Part shown: positions 1,964 through 20,000 of the stretch, piece after piece
Numbering within the stretch: position 1 is the stretch's first letter
Layout of the letters: every line of letters begins with the position of its first letter
Source of the DNA: Promethearchaeota archaeon
GTDB lineage: Archaea > Asgardarchaeota > Odinarchaeia > Odinarchaeales > JBHLKK01
Direction: 5' to 3'
Length of the DNA: 20,000 nucleotides
NCBI GenBank assembly: GCA_048939465.1
Contig: JBHLPL010000023.1
Coordinates: 1-20,000, forward strand
Translations under genes and position numbers: made by a program
The notes under the pieces: generated by a model
Told to the model about the DNA's origin: nothing
Database searches by the model: none
Seen by the model: only the letters and a program-made list of their open reading frames with translations

Positions 1964-2027
1964 CCTTTCCGAAGGATCCCGACTTTGTACATATTGATTA
2001 GAAAAGGATTTGGTGGGGTCGGTGGGA

Positions 2028-2053
2028 TTTTCCCCAAGCTGATTTTCCTTGGC
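2028..2053 (-). other. T-loop intron (position 59/60) of tRNA-Trp
   Basis: Bulge-helix-bulge reading: h GTGGG/CCCAC, central helix TTCA/GGAA (3 of 4 pairs, one A.G), bulges AA|G and AA|T, h' CCAAG/CTTGG. Confidence 0.85.
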
Positions 2054-2066
2054 TTTGAACCCACAA

Positions 2067-2096
2067 TTCGTCTTAGCAGACGATCCGGCTGTTAAT
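2067..2096 (-). other. Variable-loop intron (position 46/47) of tRNA-Trp
   Basis: Central helix CGTT/GACG, bulges GG|A and AA|T, h' TTAACAG/CTGCTAA (6 of 7 pairs); removal leaves variable loop TGGTT. Confidence 0.72.
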
Positions 2097-2105
2097 CCAA
2101 CGGGT

Positions 2106-2171
2106 TTCTTCGGAGTGGACCGCTCCAGAGGCTCTTCATCCGTTTGTCAGCAGATCTATTGCCTGGGACAT
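2106..2171 (-). other. Anticodon-loop intron (position 37/38) of tRNA-Trp
   Basis: Separates CTCCAG from ACCCGT. Central helix CTCC/GAAG has one mismatch and outer bulges are AG|A and AA|A. h' is not convincingly paired, so the exact splice sites are less certain. Confidence 0.75.
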
Positions 2172-2231
2172 CTGGAGCCCGTCGTCCTACCTGATTAGAC
2201 CACGACCCCTTCAAGAACCTGTAAAATCTTG

Positions 2232-2241
2232 AAATATAAAA
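2232..2241 (-). promoter_or_regulatory. TATA-box for tRNA-Trp
   Basis: Minus-strand TTTTATATTT centred ~28 nt before tRNA nt 1. Confidence 0.6.
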
Positions 2242-2345: not shown

Positions 2346-2495
2346 GTGTGACACCGTTCCGTGTTCTAATGGGTACGGGTGTTTCCTCTCGCCTATGGCC
2401 GCCAGCGAACCAGCAGCATCTTGCTTTCCCACGGGCTCGCGCACCGTAGTACAGGTAAGATCGCTCGAGAGCTTAACTTTCACGCGATGTCACAC
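2346..2495 (-). rRNA. Circularly permuted 5S rRNA gene (3' half then TTCG then 5' half)
   Basis: Minus strand reads GTGTGACATCG-CGTGAAAGTTAAGCTCTCGAGCGATCTTACCTGTACTACGGTGCGCGAGCCCGTGGGAAAGCAAGATGCTGCTGG-TTCG-CTGGCGGCCATAGGCGAGAGGAAACACCCGTACCCATTAGAACACGGAA-CGGTGTCACAC. Archaeal 5S signature blocks are present but swapped in order. Helix I GCTGCTGG/CTGGCGGC (8 bp with G.U), helix II CGAGAG/CTCTCG, helix III CCGT/ACGG and helix V ATCTT/AAGAT all pair. Confidence 0.9.
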
Positions 2496-2519: not shown

Positions 2520-2527
2520 TATATAAA
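2520..2527 (-). promoter_or_regulatory. TATA-box for the permuted 5S rRNA gene
   Basis: Minus-strand TTTATATA, centre ~28 nt upstream of the start of the terminal stem (2495). Confidence 0.7.
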
Positions 2528-2554
2528 AATATTGCAAATCTTGCATTGATTCCT

Positions 2555-4830: not shown

Positions 4831-4946
4831 TGCCCGTTAATCGCTGTATTTTGCCCTCGGAGAATGGAACACAGGATCGTATTCGGTACATTCTCGAGAA
4901 AAATACCAGCAAAGATACATTTTTATCTTCTTACTCATATTTCCAC

Positions 4947-5190
4947 TTGGCAATGAAGGAATAAGTGCCTTCCATCGAGGACTGACCCGAGATCTCGCAA
5001 TGAGGGTTGGAGCAAAAGGACGGTAACACCAGAGCTAGGAGCCGTAACATAATCGCACTGACAGGACTCTTACAAGGCAGATGGCTTACTGTCACTGGAT
5101 GAGTAAGGGCAAACCCACGTGCGGTACATCGGCTCCATGTCAGGGTAAGGCCCCACTATGAGAGAACTCGGCTGAGAAGGGCATAATGCC
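4947..5190 (+). ncRNA. Structured non-coding RNA, candidate archaeal RNase P RNA
   Basis: No ORF. Nested long-range pairings in RNase P-like order: GGCA(4949-4952)/TGCC(5187-5190) as P1, CCTTC(4968-4972)/GAAGG(5176-5180) as P2, CCGAG(4987-4991)/CTCGG(5167-5171) as P4 within AGAGAACTCGGCTGA (compare CR-V ACAGAACCCGGCUUA). GGAGCCG(5038-5044)/CGGCTCC(5130-5136) and CGCAC(5054-5058)/GTGCG(5119-5123) surround a specificity-like domain containing GTGCGGTA (compare CR-III). CR-I and CR-IV are not canonical. Confidence 0.5.
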
Positions 5191-5269
5191 CCGTCTAGGA
5201 GGCTGAGCGTTAGTTTGTGGGGTACACCTGACCCACTCTCTTCTTATCTCTAATATTATTCTGTTCGAG

Positions 5270-6133
5270 TTGGGATGTAACTTGGGAGGATTCTACAAAG
5301 AGCTGAGGGCTAGCCTAGAATGGAGACTCCCTGAAAGGCTATTGAACCTACTTCCACGAGGTTTTCAGAGAATCGGCGATATCATTATCATGAATATCCA
5401 CAAAGAACTCCTACCATTCAAGGAGCTGATCGGACGCAGTCTATTGAGTATCATTCCAAAATGCAGAAGCGTGTGTGTTAAGATTGGAGGAATTTCAGGA
5501 AGATATCGCACTCCTGAGTTGGAGGTTGTAGCGGGAGACAAGAATACTGAAACTACACACAGAGAACACGACTGCCTTTTCAGACTAGATGTCAAAAGAA
5601 TCATGTTTGCTAAAGGTAACGTCAATGAACGAAGGAGACTGGCTGATCTGGTGAGGGACGATGAAGTGATTGTTGATATGTTCGCTGGAATTGGGTACTT
5701 CTCTATAGTGATTGCCAGACACGCAAATCCCAGAATTATCCATTCAATAGAAATAAATCCTGTTTCATACAAGTATTTGTGTGAGAATATCCTTTTGAAC
5801 AGGGTCAATGAAAAGGTGCATCCAATCCTGGGTGACTGTTCTACTGAAGCTCCGAAATTGGGGATTACTGCAGACAGAATAATCATGGGATACTTACCAA
5901 GTCCAAAAGATCATCTTCCAGCTGCGATGAAGATTACGAATCCCAATGGTACAATCATTCACTATGAAGGATTAATACATAAAACAGATCCGCCTACTCT
6001 CCTATTAGAGGAAGTAGAAGAAGCTGCCGCGAGTTACGGCAAGATGCCCGCCCTAAGTAATTGGAAATTGATTAAGACCTTTGCGCCGAATGTTCATCAC
6101 ATCGTCTTAGACGTTTTGATAAAGGAAGGATGA
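5270..6133 (+). CDS. taw2: Class I SAM-dependent transferase, Trm5/Taw2 family; Taw2-like (wybutosine pathway aminocarboxypropyltransferase) favoured
   Basis: VDMFAGIGYFSIVIARHANPRIIHSIEINPVSYKYLCENILLNRV; uses MGYLPSP at the position where Trm5 carries an NPP-type motif. Confidence 0.75.
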   Translation: MGCNLGGFYKELRASLEWRLPERLLNLLPRGFQRIGDIIIMNIHKELLPFKELIGRSLLSIIPKCRSVCVKIGGISGRYRTPELEVVAGDKNTETTHREHDCLFRLDVKRIMFAKGNVNERRRLADLVRDDEVIVDMFAGIGYFSIVIARHANPRIIHSIEINPVSYKYLCENILLNRVNEKVHPILGDCSTEAPKLGITADRIIMGYLPSPKDHLPAAMKITNPNGTIIHYEGLIHKTDPPTLLLEEVEEAAASYGKMPALSNWKLIKTFAPNVHHIVLDVLIKEG

Positions 6134-7357: not shown

Positions 7358-8455
7358 CTAGCGCGTGACCTTCGATTCCTTAAATACTTCCAGATACTCT
7401 GCGTGTTTGTCAAAATACTTGCGGCATGGCTCAAGCATTATGGTCAGTTCCTTACCTACTGCGTTCTTTAGGTCTAGTGGGTGTAATCCACCTTTTTTGT
7501 AGAGTTTCTCTAATTCCTCAAAAGTCCAGACCGCTAGGTCTCCGCCGTGTTTTGAAGAACGCCTTATGGTAAATTCCTTTTCGCTGCCTCTGAAAATGAC
7601 ATATTTCAGTATTTCAAGAATCGGATTATCCTCAACCTGTTTTTCAGGGCAAAAAGCCATCTTCATCTTTCTATTAATGCTGCTTGGGCTATCGTGTACG
7701 AATATGCTTGTTTCAGGAATGCTTTTGCTCATTTTTGAGGCAATCTGCTGGTCAATAGAATTATTCTCATCATACCCTCCCATTTTGGTCGGCCCTTGAA
7801 GACCCATAATTAGATGATGATGAAGACTAACGGGTTTGTACCACCTTTTCTTCCCTACCTCCCTGGCCAGTATGTTTGCTTTTCTTTGGTCGATTCCAAG
7901 CTGACAGATATCTATCTTCATATGAAATATATCGGCGACCTGCATGGCTGGATAAATATACTGGGCTGCGCTTTTTAGTTCCCCATTAAGACGTCCCATA
8001 ACTGTTAGGCAGCGAGTCATTCGTTTAACAGTGGTGTCTTTTAATACTAGTATGACTTTCTTCCAGTATTCGGTGTCCTTGACAAGATCACTGGCCCAGA
8101 TTATTTCGATTTTGGATGTATCCAGACCCAAGGATTCCCAGACTTTGATGATGTAACGCCCAACAGCTCTGATCTTCTCTAAATCTCCACCCATCTTTTC
8201 ATTTATCCACGCATGCCAGTCCGCCAGAAGTATCTTGAACTTGACTCCCGCCTCGACCAAATCACCTATTTTTTGGGCTCTCATCAAGCCTGTGGCAATA
8301 TTGGCGTATCCTGATGGTTCAAAGCCATCATATGCAACAGGACATTCATTCGTTTCAAGCAATTCCCTGAGTTCCTTAGCTGTAATTATCTCCTCAATCG
8401 GTATTCTGGTAATCAACTCAATTCGTTTCTCGAGATCCAAATGGTACCACCTCAT
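7358..8455 (-). CDS. tyrS: Tyrosyl-tRNA synthetase (archaeal/eukaryotic type)
   Basis: YDGFEPSGYANIATGLMRAQKI, LLADWHAWINEKMGG, YIYPAMQVADIF, KMSKSIP. Confidence 0.95.
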   Translation of the reverse strand: MRWYHLDLEKRIELITRIPIEEIITAKELRELLETNECPVAYDGFEPSGYANIATGLMRAQKIGDLVEAGVKFKILLADWHAWINEKMGGDLEKIRAVGRYIIKVWESLGLDTSKIEIIWASDLVKDTEYWKKVILVLKDTTVKRMTRCLTVMGRLNGELKSAAQYIYPAMQVADIFHMKIDICQLGIDQRKANILAREVGKKRWYKPVSLHHHLIMGLQGPTKMGGYDENNSIDQQIASKMSKSIPETSIFVHDSPSSINRKMKMAFCPEKQVEDNPILEILKYVIFRGSEKEFTIRRSSKHGGDLAVWTFEELEKLYKKGGLHPLDLKNAVGKELTIMLEPCRKYFDKHAEYLEVFKESKVTR

Positions 8456-10533: not shown

Positions 10534-10917
10534 TTCCCGCCTTAAAAGACTCAATAGCGGTCATCGGCATTGAAAGACGAGTTCAAGTCATGGAAATCTG
10601 AAGACGCAAACCAGAATTGATATAACGACCCGAGCCAAGAAAGAATGTACGAGAATACACTTCGATATCACGATGGAAGAGCTGTCTGACAACACAGGCC
10701 GAAAGCAATCTTGAGTGACTATTATCCGATATTTAATGAAAGGCTATCGTACTCATCTAGCCTGAAAGCAAGATTCTAACTGGAAGCAAAGGGAAAAGCT
10801 CAAGTCTTGGAACTCGGTGAAATCTCTTTCATATCCCCTGAGGGATTGCCAGAAGAAAGAGATGATTTGACGATTCGCTTAACTAGTTAATCTTATTAAT
10901 ATGCTTGTCATCTATAG

Positions 10918-11574
10918 GTGGCGGAGGCCAAGAGAGTGCCGGAAATAATCGCTGGAACCAAAGCAACAAGAATGGAACTACTGGCGCTGAAGAAGCGCAT
11001 AGAGCTGGCGAAGAAAGGGCACGATCTTTTGAAAGAGAAAAGAGATGCGGTAATCATGGAGTTCTTTGATATCGTTGAAAGTGCCCGCAAAGTAAGAGAT
11101 AATACACTGAATCTTTTGAGAGAAGCTTTTACGGCACTTACTGAGGCAAAGATGCTCATGGGACCGTTGCAGCTGGATGAACTTGCCCTGACGACTCCCG
11201 CAAATGTTGAGCTGGAAATCGAAAGTCGTAACATTATGGGCGTTTCAATACCTATTTTGCAAACCAAGGAAACAAGGACCTCCAAAAGGCTTTTCAGTCT
11301 CCTAGGTACATCCGCCAAGCTGGATGATGCAGTAGAGAAGTTTAAGGCGGCCTTGACACACATTATTAAATTGGCCGAAGTTGAGGCTAGCCTAAAGAGA
11401 ATGGCTGAGGAGATAGAAAGGACTAAACGCCGTGTCAACGCACTGAAGGCCATAGTCATCCCAAGGATTGAGAATACGATACGCTATATTTCACTGCACC
11501 TAGAAGAAAGAGAAAGGGAAGATTTTTCAAGGCTCAAATTCATAAAACGGAAGCTAGAGAAGTCGAAAACTTGA
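10918..11574 (+). CDS. atpD: A/V-type ATP synthase subunit D; GTG start
   Basis: IIAGTKATRMELLALKKRIELAKKGHDLLKEKRDAVIMEFF; C-terminal RRVNALKAIVIPRIENTIRYISLHLEEREREDFSRLKFIKRKLEK. Confidence 0.95.
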   Translation: MAEAKRVPEIIAGTKATRMELLALKKRIELAKKGHDLLKEKRDAVIMEFFDIVESARKVRDNTLNLLREAFTALTEAKMLMGPLQLDELALTTPANVELEIESRNIMGVSIPILQTKETRTSKRLFSLLGTSAKLDDAVEKFKAALTHIIKLAEVEASLKRMAEEIERTKRRVNALKAIVIPRIENTIRYISLHLEEREREDFSRLKFIKRKLEKSKT

Positions 11575-11582
11575 TCCGATTT

Positions 11583-11975
11583 CTATCCTTTGGTCGATTT
11601 AAGAGAGAGAATAGCTTGCGCCAGGTCACCACCCGCCGCTGCTAATGCCGCTTTGGCCTCTTCAACGCCGGCTCCGGTCTGCTGTGCCACCAGCCGAATG
11701 TCCTCCTCAGGAATCTCAACATGCTTAGTCTCTTCGGCCGACTCTTCTTCTGCCTTTCCAGAGTATGGTCGCTCACTAACACTTCCGCTTATCTGAAAGA
11801 TCTTATGTCCCTTCGTGTCTGTAATGAAGACCTGAGGGTTGGATATCAGAATCTCCTTATTTGGCAATCTAATAATCACCTCTTCTGCAGTATCAAGGGT
11901 TTCTAGCCTTAGGCCCATTTTTCGCATAGCCTTTTCCATATCCCGAGGTCGCATCTTTCTCCTAATTCTACTCAT
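11583..11975 (-). CDS. nac: Archaeal nascent polypeptide-associated complex protein (NAC domain plus C-terminal UBA)
   Basis: IRRKMRPRDMEKAMRKMG, GHKIFQISG, IRLVAQQTGAGVEEAKAALAAAGGDLAQAILSL. Confidence 0.92.
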   Translation of the reverse strand: MSRIRRKMRPRDMEKAMRKMGLRLETLDTAEEVIIRLPNKEILISNPQVFITDTKGHKIFQISGSVSERPYSGKAEEESAEETKHVEIPEEDIRLVAQQTGAGVEEAKAALAAAGGDLAQAILSLKSTKG

Positions 11976-12453
11976 CCTCCTTTATGCCCCTTCTAACTTT
12001 AACAGCAACTCCTCGCTTAAATACAATCATCTCTTCACCATTAAGAAGAGCTTTACCAACAGCTAAAATCCTATCGGTTCCGTCCACCACGATGACTTCC
12101 GCAGCGGGTCTAATATCGGGGTCGGCCTCAACCACATGCTTTGCAAATACATTTCTTCCTTCTGAAATAAATTCCGTCACTTCATTAGAAATTACCACTC
12201 TGAATCTGGGTCTTGGTATCTGCTTCATGATTCGTTTCGCACCGGCCAGAGTAAGGGCTAAATACCCGTCCTTTGGACGAAGTGTTGCTATGAGTTCATT
12301 GTTGACATATATATGCCTTATTCGCCCTGTCGTCGGTGATCTTGTGACTGTCAAATCTTCCGGAAAAAGGATATGCCCGATTTTTGGACCAAATTGATAG
12401 TTTGCAACTCCCCGTAATACTCTGAGGGCGAATGAATCGCACTTCTCATGCAT
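11968..12453 (-). CDS. PUA domain-containing RNA-binding protein
   Basis: C-terminal PDIRPAAEVIVVDGTDRILAVGKALLNGEEMIVFKRGVAVKVRRGI (PUA signature). Confidence 0.85.
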   Translation of the reverse strand: MHEKCDSFALRVLRGVANYQFGPKIGHILFPEDLTVTRSPTTGRIRHIYVNNELIATLRPKDGYLALTLAGAKRIMKQIPRPRFRVVISNEVTEFISEGRNVFAKHVVEADPDIRPAAEVIVVDGTDRILAVGKALLNGEEMIVFKRGVAVKVRRGIKEDE

Positions 12454-14416: not shown

Positions 14417-14986
14417 TCAGGAAGTTCTTAAGACTCTCTTTCCCCTTCTTGTTGGGATTACTCTGATTTTGGCATTCTTGAAAACCTTATCCAGTTCCCT
14501 CCCCTCAAAAAAGTGGTCGAGAATGCATGCTAGACTGGCGATCTCAGAATGAGGTTGGTTGGTCACCGATATGTTCCAGTCTGCGATGTGGTATACGTCA
14601 TAAGGAACCTTTGACGACCCGACAACAATAATCAGGCTATCCTCACAATTCCGAATTTCGTCAATCTTTTCTCTGAGTGGCATTCCGTACATGGTCAGAT
14701 GTATAATCTTGCCTTTCCACTCTTTGAGGATTCTCTTCCAGTTTCTCTCATATTCAACCTTGAATTCTCCTCCCCAATCCTCCACAACTTGCCTAACAGA
14801 ATTGATTAGGTTCTCATCTTTGTCTCCACTTAAGATTCCAAAATCGGCACCAAATGCTCTGGCGACCAGAAAGACGTGAGATGTTGTTCGTTTGTCACGG
14901 TACATCCTATGACCTAGCCTCATGACCCCTATTTCCATAATATCCCCTCTTATTGTATATTTTTCGCTGAAAAACCTAAAAAACAT
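14417..14986 (-). CDS. trm56: tRNA (cytidine(56)-2'-O)-methyltransferase, aTrm56
   Basis: IGVMRLGHRMYRDKRTTSHVFLVARAFGADFGILSG; IVVGSSKVPYDVYHIADWNISVTNQPHSEIASLACILD. Confidence 0.93.
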   Translation of the reverse strand: MFFRFFSEKYTIRGDIMEIGVMRLGHRMYRDKRTTSHVFLVARAFGADFGILSGDKDENLINSVRQVVEDWGGEFKVEYERNWKRILKEWKGKIIHLTMYGMPLREKIDEIRNCEDSLIIVVGSSKVPYDVYHIADWNISVTNQPHSEIASLACILDHFFEGRELDKVFKNAKIRVIPTRRGKRVLRTS

Positions 14987-17749: not shown

Positions 17750-19195
17750 CTAGCTCTTCTTAGCCTCGGAAGCTTCCCGTCTCTCGGCTTTATCTATAAT
17801 GGCCTTGATATCTTTAACTATATCGCTATCGACGGGTTCGGGCTTGTGCTCCCTTAATATATTGGTGGCCTTCTCCCGAGCTCTTGTCAACAGGTCCTTA
17901 GAACCTTTCTTGGTCCAAGCAGCTACTGTATTTCTATCCATCAATGTGGGCAGCCAAAACTCTGTGTTAACAAACTTAAGTGTATGTTTGTGGCTGAGGA
18001 AATGACCTCCCGGCCCCACGTCTCTGACCACATCTGTCGCTAGTGTTTCATCATTGACTTCCATTCCCCTGGCGATTCTGTCGCACATGGCAGCAATTTC
18101 ATCATTGATCACAAGCATCTCAAGACTTCCAGTCATTGCAGATTCGATATATCCACAATCATGGACCAAGTTTGTGCCGCTTAATGTAGCCATTAACCCG
18201 CTCATGGTTGCCTCGGATATAGCTTGCCCGTCGACAACCTTGGAGTCCGTGACTCCACCAGTTCCAAAGAACGGGAGTTTATAAAACCGTGCGAGCTGTG
18301 CTCCTGCAGCATTTATGATTGCGAATTCTGGGGATCCGTATGATGCAATGGCTGTTCGCGGGTCAAAAATCATCGAAATATTCCCCCAGATATAGGGTGT
18401 TCCCTTTCTAACAAGTTCAGAAATCACCAACCCTGCCAGTATCTCGGCGTTTGATGCTGCCAGAGTTCCAGCCAAGGTAATGGGACCTGTAGATCCTGCA
18501 ACCATCAATGAACCATAAATTACTGGCAGTCCAGCTTTTGCGCATTCCACAACATTCTCGATGTAGATTTTGTCATGTTTCAAGGGAGCTGTCGGCTCAG
18601 AATACAGTGTTAGAAGAGGTTTCCTTCTGAGCTCTTCTTCTCCACCCATTATCAAAGAAGCTATTTTTATGGCATCTCTTGTGCTCTCAGGGCTGTAGGT
18701 GATTCCAACCATTGGTTTTTCAGAATTGAGTAATGTTTCGGAGATCTCATGAAGATCTTGGGCTCTTCCCTGATAGTCTAACGCACAACAGAACTGCTCA
18801 ACAAATTTCATATTTGGCAATCCATCTGCTAGCCTAGCTGCCTTTCCAATATAATCTTTCATAGCTGGTTTCCTGTCTCCTGCGATATCCATGAACTTCA
18901 CAGTAGTGGAACCCATTCCAAAGAAGACCCTGCCGTTTTCAAGCTTTATGTCATGCTTCGGCTCCCTTCCACATAACACAATCCGTTCCGGAGCTTTCTG
19001 TAATGCTTCTTTTACGAGGTATGAAGGTATTTTAACGATGTGATCTTTCTCGTCAACAATTGCTCCTGCATCCTTAAAGATTTTAATAGCTAAGTTGCTC
19101 CCAACAAACATACCAACTCGTTCCAATATCTCAAGAGTTGCTAGATGTATCTGGTATAGCTCGTCATCGTTGAGGATAGTTAATCTTGCTCGCAT
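17750..19195 (-). CDS. Trimethylamine methyltransferase (MttB) superfamily protein, non-pyrrolysine type
   Basis: 481-aa uninterrupted ORF: GRVFFGMGSTTVKFMDIAGDRKPA, CALDYQGRAQDLHEI, GPITLAGTLAASNAEILAGLV, GHFLSHKHTLKFVNTEFWLPTLMDR. Confidence 0.88.
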   Translation of the reverse strand: MRARLTILNDDELYQIHLATLEILERVGMFVGSNLAIKIFKDAGAIVDEKDHIVKIPSYLVKEALQKAPERIVLCGREPKHDIKLENGRVFFGMGSTTVKFMDIAGDRKPAMKDYIGKAARLADGLPNMKFVEQFCCALDYQGRAQDLHEISETLLNSEKPMVGITYSPESTRDAIKIASLIMGGEEELRRKPLLTLYSEPTAPLKHDKIYIENVVECAKAGLPVIYGSLMVAGSTGPITLAGTLAASNAEILAGLVISELVRKGTPYIWGNISMIFDPRTAIASYGSPEFAIINAAGAQLARFYKLPFFGTGGVTDSKVVDGQAISEATMSGLMATLSGTNLVHDCGYIESAMTGSLEMLVINDEIAAMCDRIARGMEVNDETLATDVVRDVGPGGHFLSHKHTLKFVNTEFWLPTLMDRNTVAAWTKKGSKDLLTRAREKATNILREHKPEPVDSDIVKDIKAIIDKAERREASEAKKS

Positions 19196-19277: not shown

Positions 19278-20000
19278 TCAATCTACTTCGTCTGGAAATA
19301 CTTCCTTGAGTCTCCATATGCCGAAGTCCGAAATCGTCTTTTCGGTTTCCACAGGATTATACCATTGTTTCTTAGTGCCAACTTTTGCTCGCATTTTCCA
19401 TCTGAATCCTTTTGGCTCATTTTCTACGAAATGTAATAACTTTGATCCTTTCGCAATAATATCCTCTCTCTCAGGCCCGGAAAGGTTCAGCAGGAACTCA
19501 AGCGGTTCCTGTTTGGACGCCCACTCCTCGGCGTTTTCAAGCAAATCTATGATTCTTTTAAGATTTGTTGTGGCTGTATAATAGAAGCCCCAGTCTTTGG
19601 CAAACAGCTTAGCAACATAATTGCCGTTCACTGTTTCCTTTTCTGATTCACCTATGTCATGGGCTCGTAACAGAAGCAAAACATCTTTGATATCTTTTAG
19701 ACCGAAGGCCTCCCACATCTGGAGTTTTTCCAACAGCAGATCAGCAACAGTTATCGTCGGAGAATCCAGTTCTAATCTTTTACGAAAGTTGATTGGGTGA
19801 TTTGCGACCCTTAGTTCATCAAAAAACACATCAGTGAACCACCACAGCTTGTGGTGGAAGTAGATGTCCCTCTTGGAGATTGCCGAAGATAGTGTCGTTT
19901 TCCTCTTCATATAGTTAAAATTCTCCTTAAAGAAATCCTTCAATTTCTTACGGTATTTGCCATAGGACATAAAGTCCAAGTCGCTGAACTCTTGTTCCTC
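19278..20000 (-). CDS. Nucleotidyltransferase, AbiEii/AbiGii toxin-like family; 5' end lies outside the window
   Basis: The frame continues upstream of the listed TTG as EEQEFSDLDFMSYGKYRKKL, giving the typical (S)DLDF nucleotidyltransferase motif; RKRLELDSPTITVADLLLEKLQMWEAFGLKDIKDVLLLLRAH. Confidence 0.8.
   Translation of the reverse strand, partial: EEQEFSDLDFMSYGKYRKKLKDFFKENFNYMKRKTTLSSAISKRDIYFHHKLWWFTDVFFDELRVANHPINFRKRLELDSPTITVADLLLEKLQMWEAFGLKDIKDVLLLLRAHDIGESEKETVNGNYVAKLFAKDWGFYYTATTNLKRIIDLLENAEEWASKQEPLEFLLNLSGPEREDIIAKGSKLLHFVENEPKGFRWKMRAKVGTKKQWYNPVETEKTISDFGIWRLKEVFPDEVD

Follow-up and report, generated by a model that had tools for sequence, protein, structure and literature searches.

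The tRNA-Trp gene and its surroundings

The window (the whole 20,000-nt stretch of DNA that we analysed) contains a tRNA-Trp(CCA) gene of 199 nt on the minus strand, running from position 2209 down to 2011, downstream of a circularly permuted 5S rRNA gene. The stretch is archaeal: it encodes PAN, aTrm56, NAC, a TGT-C2/PUA protein, DUF1512, a Taw2/Trm5-like enzyme and TyrRS. Its closest genome match was a 'Promethearchaeota' (Asgard) MAG, and its proteins carry that name in NCBI; Hodarchaeota and Odinarchaeia are the labels of the next TyrRS relatives. Judged from sequence, the host is an Asgard (Promethearchaeota) archaeon. The features of the two genes, in the direction of reading, are as follows.

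2520..2529, minus strand: TATA-like box of the permuted 5S rRNA gene, conserved; start expected ~3 nt before the outer helix of its bulge-helix-bulge (BHB)
2346..2495, minus strand: circularly permuted 5S rRNA gene, upstream of tRNA-Trp; predicted excised RNA from 2478 to 2358 (121 nt)
2232..2241, minus strand: TATA-like promoter box TTTTATATTT, centre ~27 nt upstream of the mature tRNA 5' end
2172..2209, minus strand: exon 1, 38 nt, tRNA positions 1-37 with one additional D-loop base; acceptor 5' strand, D-arm, anticodon stem 5' strand and C32 U33 C34 C35 A36 G37
2106..2171, minus strand: intron 1, 66 nt, canonical site 37/38, hBH type
2110..2150, minus strand: conserved block of intron 1, conserved out to the more distant relative L098
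2097..2105, minus strand: exon 2, 9 nt, positions 38-46; A38, CCCGU (anticodon stem 3' strand), U44 G45 G46
2067..2096, minus strand: intron 2, 30 nt, variable loop 46/47, HBh' type
2054..2066, minus strand: exon 3, 13 nt, positions 47-59; U47 U48, GUGGG (T-stem 5' strand), U54 U55 C56 A57 A58 A59
2028..2053, minus strand: intron 3, 26 nt, T-loop 59/60, hBHBh' type
2011..2027, minus strand: exon 4, 17 nt; U60, CCCAC (T-stem 3' strand), CGACCCC (acceptor 3' strand), A73 (discriminator) and encoded CCA (2013-2011)
2000..2010, minus strand: T-rich stretch AAUCCUUUUCU, immediately 3' of CCA

With 66 nt excised at 37/38, 30 nt at 46/47 and 26 nt at 59/60, a 77-nt RNA remains that ARAGORN called as tRNA-Trp(cca), a perfect cloverleaf with all four arms intact. 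The spliced tRNA carries U8, A14, G18 G19, U33, G53 U54 U55 C56 A58 C61 and the A15-U48 pair. Its G1-C72, G2-C71 and A73 make up an acceptor end of the archaeal/eukaryotic Trp type. An earlier note on this DNA had proposed a tRNA-Trp(CCA) at 2011-2209 with an encoded CCA and complete arms; the spliced product bears this out and adds the strand, which the note did not state. The distance of the TATA box suggests that the transcript leader is very short or absent. The T-rich stretch after CCA, replaced in relatives by TTGTTTTTT or TTGCTTCTT, is probably an archaeal terminator.

Unspliced, the gene drew no ARAGORN call, with or without anticodon-loop introns, and no Rfam match at gathering score, either in the raw window or in the related loci. 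Such silence is to be expected where introns are non-canonical and does not speak against the gene. Sub-threshold Rfam matches to permuted tmRNA and SNORD44 in the window were dismissed as noise. Being invisible to ARAGORN and to Rfam's curated thresholds, such loci make their genomes seem devoid of tRNA-Trp (and of 5S rRNA).

Genes for a Taw2/Trm5-like methyltransferase (5270-6133), TyrRS (7358-8455), the TGT-C2/PUA protein (11968-12453) and aTrm56 (14417-14986) lie less than 13 kb from the tRNA-Trp/5S pair, as their counterparts do at loci L096 and L098. The linkage of these tRNA-related genes to DUF1512 and PPAT persists among the Asgard lineages labelled Hodarchaeota and Odinarchaeia. The class I synthetase at 7358-8455 was considered as a TrpRS and rejected, since it is a TyrRS and so has no link to tRNA-Trp. 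Positions 4909-5231 (plus strand), in the 440 nt that separate the DUF1512 and Taw2/Trm5-like genes, gave a weak Rfam match to HgcG/Pab40 (H/ACA; 25.8 bits, E 0.001, gathering score 77) and may encode an unannotated H/ACA sRNA. A sub-threshold PYLIS_3 match (30.6 vs 38 bits) at 18154-18255 (minus strand) falls inside an MttB-family ORF (17750-19195). As this ORF is open over 481 codons, it probably encodes a non-Pyl MttB homologue, and similarity at the level of coding sequence probably accounts for the match.

Splice motifs, conservation and the choice of junctions

Splice sites were assessed with a script that scored all possible pairs of cut sites for true BHB geometry, namely a central helix of 4 bp that is followed 3' on both strands by a bulge of 3 nt, the cut falling after the second bulge base. 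The mirror image, in which the bulge precedes the central helix on its 5' side, was dropped unscored as invalid geometry. True BHB geometry was found at all three introns, with central helices of 3/4, 4/4 and 3/4 for introns 1, 2 and 3 respectively. Intron 3 alone has the strict hBHBh' form; intron 1 is without h' and intron 2 without h. The corresponding hBH and HBh' forms are recognised categories of relaxed BHB (PMC4090602).

At intron 1 the outer helix is the anticodon stem (h 6, h' 0), the central helix pairs CUCC (C32-C35) with GAAG, leaving a C34.A mismatch, and the 3' bulge is AA^A38 (caret, cut site). Intron 2 pairs C41 G42 U43 U44 (CGUU) with intron GACG, between bulges GG^A and AA^U. 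The local hairpin CGUCU-GCUA-AGACG was tried as its inner helix and rejected, being incompatible with a BHB at any usable site; the long-range helix UUAACAG/CUGUUAA fits. This inner helix, UUAACAGNC/GNCUGYURA, has 3 bp in the window and 9 bp in L003 and L085, and one-sided changes in it preserve or improve pairing (A.C to A-U, U-A to U.G). Covariation in intron helices among close relatives consists of one-sided changes only. The T-loop intron had been described in the earlier note as having a near-perfect BHB, and we found the same: the T-stem provides a 5-bp outer helix, CCAAG/CUUGG a 5-bp inner helix, and UUCA/GGAA a central helix with an A57.G mismatch, between bulges AA^G and AA^U. In relatives the stem of intron 3 is preserved and its loop is variable.

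Folded in silico, the splicing-competent structures reached -57.5 and -58.5 kcal/mol, 13-14 kcal/mol above the minimum free energy (MFE) fold at -71.8 kcal/mol. The MFE fold lies lower because in it the anticodon loop pairs with UCUGGAGC of intron 1. Intron 1 needs the anticodon stem and intron 2 borrows positions 41-44 of this very stem, so that the two motifs are mutually exclusive. The precursor would have to refold between the cuts of introns 1 and 2.

Conservation was examined in three close lineages, represented by the window with L001/2, by L083/84, and by L003 with L085-89. All three share the gene order PPAT, permuted 5S, tRNA-Trp, aconitase, and all three tRNA-Trp introns are present in each. 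Across the alignment only 1/77 exon columns varied, as against 5/66 (8%) in intron 1, 7/30 (23%) in intron 2, 9/26 (35%) in intron 3, 43/95 (45%) in the upstream spacer and 25/47 (53%) in the downstream flank. Exon 2 is invariant in these relatives, and exon 1, identical in L098, differs among them by a single D-loop T/C. The 40 nt upstream of the tRNA, TATA box included, had 2/40 variable columns compared with 45% in the spacer beyond. Near-invariant exons between variable introns and flanks indicate that selection follows the proposed exon boundaries; by this alignment, the exons under purifying selection are precisely those predicted, a match beyond chance. Synteny of the gene holds in at least four lineages. 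At the more distant PPAT-anchored loci L091-L094 synteny was lost. An aconitase-anchored genome scan returned mostly bacteria, with L003 the only informative locus, and a scan of JGI metagenomes with the 5' exon pattern gave 0 matches.

The more distant relative L098 provides a further comparison. Its TyrRS is 65% identical to that of the window, and synteny extends to it: a permuted 5S is followed by a tRNA-Trp gene of 169 nt (19414-19582, plus strand) with an identical 5' exon. This gene has introns of 67 nt at 37/38 and 25 nt at 43/44, and none in the T-loop. Intron 1 has the same ends as in the window and G37 is kept, while the 43/44 intron is unrelated in sequence to the window's and has a 3/4 central helix, a 7-bp inner helix and a GUAA cap. 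The spliced L098 tRNA is 72/77 identical to ours, was likewise called tRNA-Trp by ARAGORN, and has two compensatory pairs in the T-stem (G49-C65 to A-U, U50-A64 to A-U). Contiguous UGGUU in its variable loop and UUCAAAU in its T-loop match exactly the exon 2/3 and exon 3/4 junctions of the window and confirm, by homology, the junctions of introns 2 and 3. The comparison also reveals intron gain or loss; the variable-region introns, 3 nt apart (46/47 in the window, 43/44 in L098), reflect either sliding or independent insertion.

The data bear on two other accounts of the locus. It is highly improbable that we are looking at a pseudogene in decay or a tRNA-like arrangement that arose by chance, as the lack of any call by standard tools on the unspliced locus might suggest: the exons have stayed nearly invariant between flanks diverged by 45-53%, the promoter is conserved, the T-stem of L098 has changed in a compensatory manner, synteny is kept across lineages, and related complete genomes depend on equally interrupted tRNA-Trp genes (PMC11291895). 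A real gene in which at least one junction differs from that given in the earlier note has a little more to be said for it. Intron 2 might lie at 45/46 or 47/48, intron 1 might be offset so as to give A37, and intron 3 might lie at 57/58 or 58/59; ARAGORN indeed set intron 1 two bases earlier (loop CUCCAAA), and the A-run at the third site means that 57/58, 58/59 and 59/60 yield an identical product. However, a cut after the second bulge base selects 37/38, 46/47 and 59/60, the uninterrupted L098 sequences fix the mature product at sites 2 and 3, and G37 is retained in L098 between identical intron ends. We consider shifted junctions unlikely, and geometry, conservation and the L098 junctions all agree with the intron lengths and sites that the earlier note had proposed.

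Our preferred reading, to which we assign a probability of roughly 0.9, is that 2209 to 2011 is a functional Asgard tRNA-Trp(CCA) gene with three protein-spliced BHB-type introns. A precursor of ~200 nt containing all three introns would be transcribed from the gene's own TATA promoter. EndA would then cut at six sites, each within a 3-nt bulge beside a 4-bp helix, and an RtcB-type ligase would join the four exons into the 77-nt tRNA, in which CCA is already encoded. Introns 1 and 2 could not be presented at once, so that refolding would intervene between their cuts; intron 3 would be removed independently of both. No tRNA_int_endo domain was found within the 20,000-nt window. The earlier note's expectation of a heteromeric, broad-specificity EndA agrees with a report that the Asgard enzyme is (alpha-beta)2 with an L1 loop, a report in which undetected disrupted tRNA genes were suspected (Kaneta et al. 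2018, PMC5829648).

The permuted 5S rRNA gene upstream

Upstream of tRNA-Trp, Rfam recognised the 3' half of a 5S rRNA first and the 5' half second, at 20.0 and 23.2 bits, both sub-threshold; at gathering score the permuted gene was missed. Its order is helix III 3' side, helices II/V/IV, helix I 3' strand, a tetraloop, helix I 5' strand, loop A, helix II and helix III 5' side. A UUCG loop thus connects the normal ends of 5S (helix I), and the opening of the gene lies in helix III. Together, leader and trailer make up a textbook BHB, with an 11-bp outer helix (10-12 bp across loci), a CGUG/CACG central helix and bulges AA^A and GA^A. Cutting and ligation at this BHB are predicted to give a circle of 121 nt (129 nt in L095) with the junction CACGGA^AGUUAAGC. 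Each of the two genes, tRNA-Trp and permuted 5S, has one conserved TATA-like box.

A normal, unpermuted 5S rRNA in the related archaeon L092 (791-911, plus strand; Rfam 82 bits) lies directly upstream of DUF1512, at a locus whose PPAT is 48% identical. Rotated to the normal order, the window 5S is collinear with it, with 84/121 positions identical, junction included. In L095 a permuted 5S sits where L092 has the normal one, upstream of DUF1512. The normal gene of L092 serves as a control and gives a hint to where the permutation arose. The earlier note had placed a permuted 5S directly upstream of tRNA-Trp, and the order of the Rfam halves, the BHB and the rotated alignment all support it. Permuted 5S genes were located elsewhere as follows.

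L003, 3725-3874: permuted 5S rRNA
L083, 789-938: permuted 5S rRNA
L085, 10546-10695: permuted 5S rRNA
L098, 19182-19332: permuted 5S rRNA
L096, 20368-20518, minus strand: permuted 5S rRNA
L095, 1741-1900, minus strand: permuted 5S rRNA

The permutation thus occurs in four divergent Asgard lineages: the window clade, L098, L096 (labelled Odinarchaeia) and L095 (Baldrarchaeia). Outer-helix sequences differ between lineages, yet stay complementary, and an alignment of the window clade with L095 has compensatory changes in 17/50 consensus pairs. L095 also encodes an SRP RNA (10790-11108, plus strand; Rfam 183 bits) followed directly by a GC-rich intron-containing tRNA (11126-11250, plus strand), which ARAGORN miscalls as a tRNA-Ala with a 390-nt intron engulfing the SRP RNA.

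We lean towards the view that tRNA-Trp and the permuted 5S form a conserved two-gene module, in which both RNAs would depend on the intron-splicing machinery and in which the 5S BHB, once cut and ligated, would restore the universal ...CACGGA^AGUUAAGC... sequence. If this is true, these Asgard archaea produce their 5S rRNA via EndA and a ligase, as a circular or re-opened molecule. Our literature search on permuted 5S rRNA returned organelle cases only and no description of this Asgard gene, and according to a 2026 paper 16S and 23S undergo circularisation 'but not 5S'. The permuted 5S is more remarkable than tRNA-Trp, and is the part of the locus that deserves attention.

Intron 1 and its counterparts in other archaea

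The conserved block of intron 1 consists of CUGA-N5-GGAUGA, which resembles a K-loop C'/D' motif, then 6 nt, UCUGGAGC, and CCGA 4 bases from the 3' splice site. The 8 nt of UCUGGAGC are antisense to G31-G37 plus the first intron base. The C'/D' motif CUGA-CAAAC-GGAUGA is kept in all relatives, its loop base being variable, and in L098. Window and L098 have in common CUGA-N5/6-GGAUGA, a 6-nt gap, UCUGGAGCG and C(C/U)GAAGAA, and differ over the remainder of the intron; the D-like box 4 nt from the 3' splice site is CCGA in the window and CUGA in L098. In the three close lineages the 3' 37 nt of the intron are invariant even though the spacers differ by 45%. The best box C candidate is AGAUGU, which spans the 5' splice junction. 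From C' to the D-like box the spacer measures 22 nt in the window and 18 nt in L098, not 12. No guide-target duplex complying with the N+5 rule was found in intron 1, the base opposite C34 not being the fifth upstream of box D, and Rfam C/D families gave no match even at E<=10.

A box C/D guide intron has reportedly been described in euryarchaeal pre-tRNA-Trp (Clouet d'Orval 2001; Singh 2004; aligned in PMC2584109, Add. file 4). Like it, intron 1 occupies the canonical site of the same tRNA and has CUGA and xGAUGA-type boxes, an antisense to the anticodon loop (CCUCUGGAG) and a CCGA box near its 3' end. Unlike it, intron 1 has a spacer of 18-22 nt (L098 included) instead of 12, fails the N+5 rule, and is without a clear box C, an antisense to position 39 or a terminal stem. 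In haloarchaea the tRNA-Trp intron has been proven to act as a box C/D guide that directs Cm34 and Um39 (PMC2584109, Add. file 4).

Besides being spliced, intron 1 could be a functional RNA related to the euryarchaeal guide, a role that would be compatible with the spliced tRNA-Trp explanation. Such an RNA would bind L7Ae at the C'/D' K-loop and pair with the anticodon loop, and might, for example, direct or assist Cm34 formation or chaperone folding. We regard this proposal, in all its parts, as doubtful. The block elements are conserved from the window to L098 and the 3' end is invariant in the close lineages; the haloarchaeal guide UGACGA-CCCUCUGGAGUU-CCGA is clearly similar, sharing the antisense core and the CCGA variant (PMC2584109); and the C34.A mismatch of the splice motif would be explained if the GA of GAAG doubled as the GA of box D. 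On the other hand, the spacer is too long, box C is poor and straddles the splice junction, no Rfam C/D family matches, and any antisense to the universal CUCCAGA loop looks alike, so that the resemblance may be convergent. Intron 1 as a self-guiding box C/D RNA was rejected because it fails the N+5 rule. The canonical tRNA-Trp intron may, by its conserved motifs, be a remodelled element of box C/D type.

As to the number of introns, the earlier note was right that archaeal tRNAs with several introns are known. In Thermoproteales, three introns per tRNA have long been recorded and are the stated maximum (PMC4033280). An example is Pyrobaculum islandicum tRNA-Pro(UGG), with introns at 25/26, 37/38 and 56/57 (Sugahara 2007/2008, reviewed in PMC4090602 and PMC4033280). 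As in the window, these genes have up to three introns of BHB, hBH or HBh' type, at non-canonical sites that include 45/46 and 59/60, and their multi-intron tRNAs require an (alpha-beta)2 EndA that carries a specificity loop. Thermoproteales belong to the TACK phylum, and 46/47 is absent from the sites named in the accessible part of the review.

The same note's view that three introns are uncommon in tRNA-Trp does not hold for Asgard archaea. In the complete genomes of Atabeyarchaeia and Freyarchaeia, introns occur in 92-95% of tRNA genes, over half of the genes hold more than one, and non-canonical introns are frequent (Valentin-Alvarado et al. 2024, PMC11291895). The only tRNA-Trp(CCA) listed for Atabeya-2 has 4 introns (231 nt) and that for Freya 3 introns (213 nt; PMC11291895, Suppl. 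Data 4), and many other tRNAs in these genomes also hold 3-4 introns. For Atabeya-1, the accessible part of the same table gives a tRNA-Trp(CCA) of 206 nt with 3 introns, at gene positions 39-107 (69 nt), 116-146 (31 nt) and within the last 60 nt. As far as that part goes, these 60 nt resolve as 13 + about 30 + 17, the layout of the window gene. In Atabeya-2 and Freya, as in the window, a 3' exon of 17 nt comes after a T-loop intron; unlike the window gene, Atabeya-2 has an additional D-loop intron and Freya is without a variable-loop intron. Compared by table coordinates, not by sequence, the window introns appear to occupy the same sites as the published Asgard ones, in a different lineage and with slightly different lengths (66, 30 and 26 nt).

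A three-intron Asgard tRNA-Trp is thus already known in kind, and the window gene is correct but ordinary. As a tRNA finding it adds little, because heavily interrupted tRNA genes are on record for Thermoproteales and, from 2024 on, for Asgard archaea. What is informative is the comparative series, with a T-loop intron present or absent and a variable-region intron at 46/47 or 43/44, which bears on the turnover of tRNA introns in the archaeal group closest to eukaryotes.
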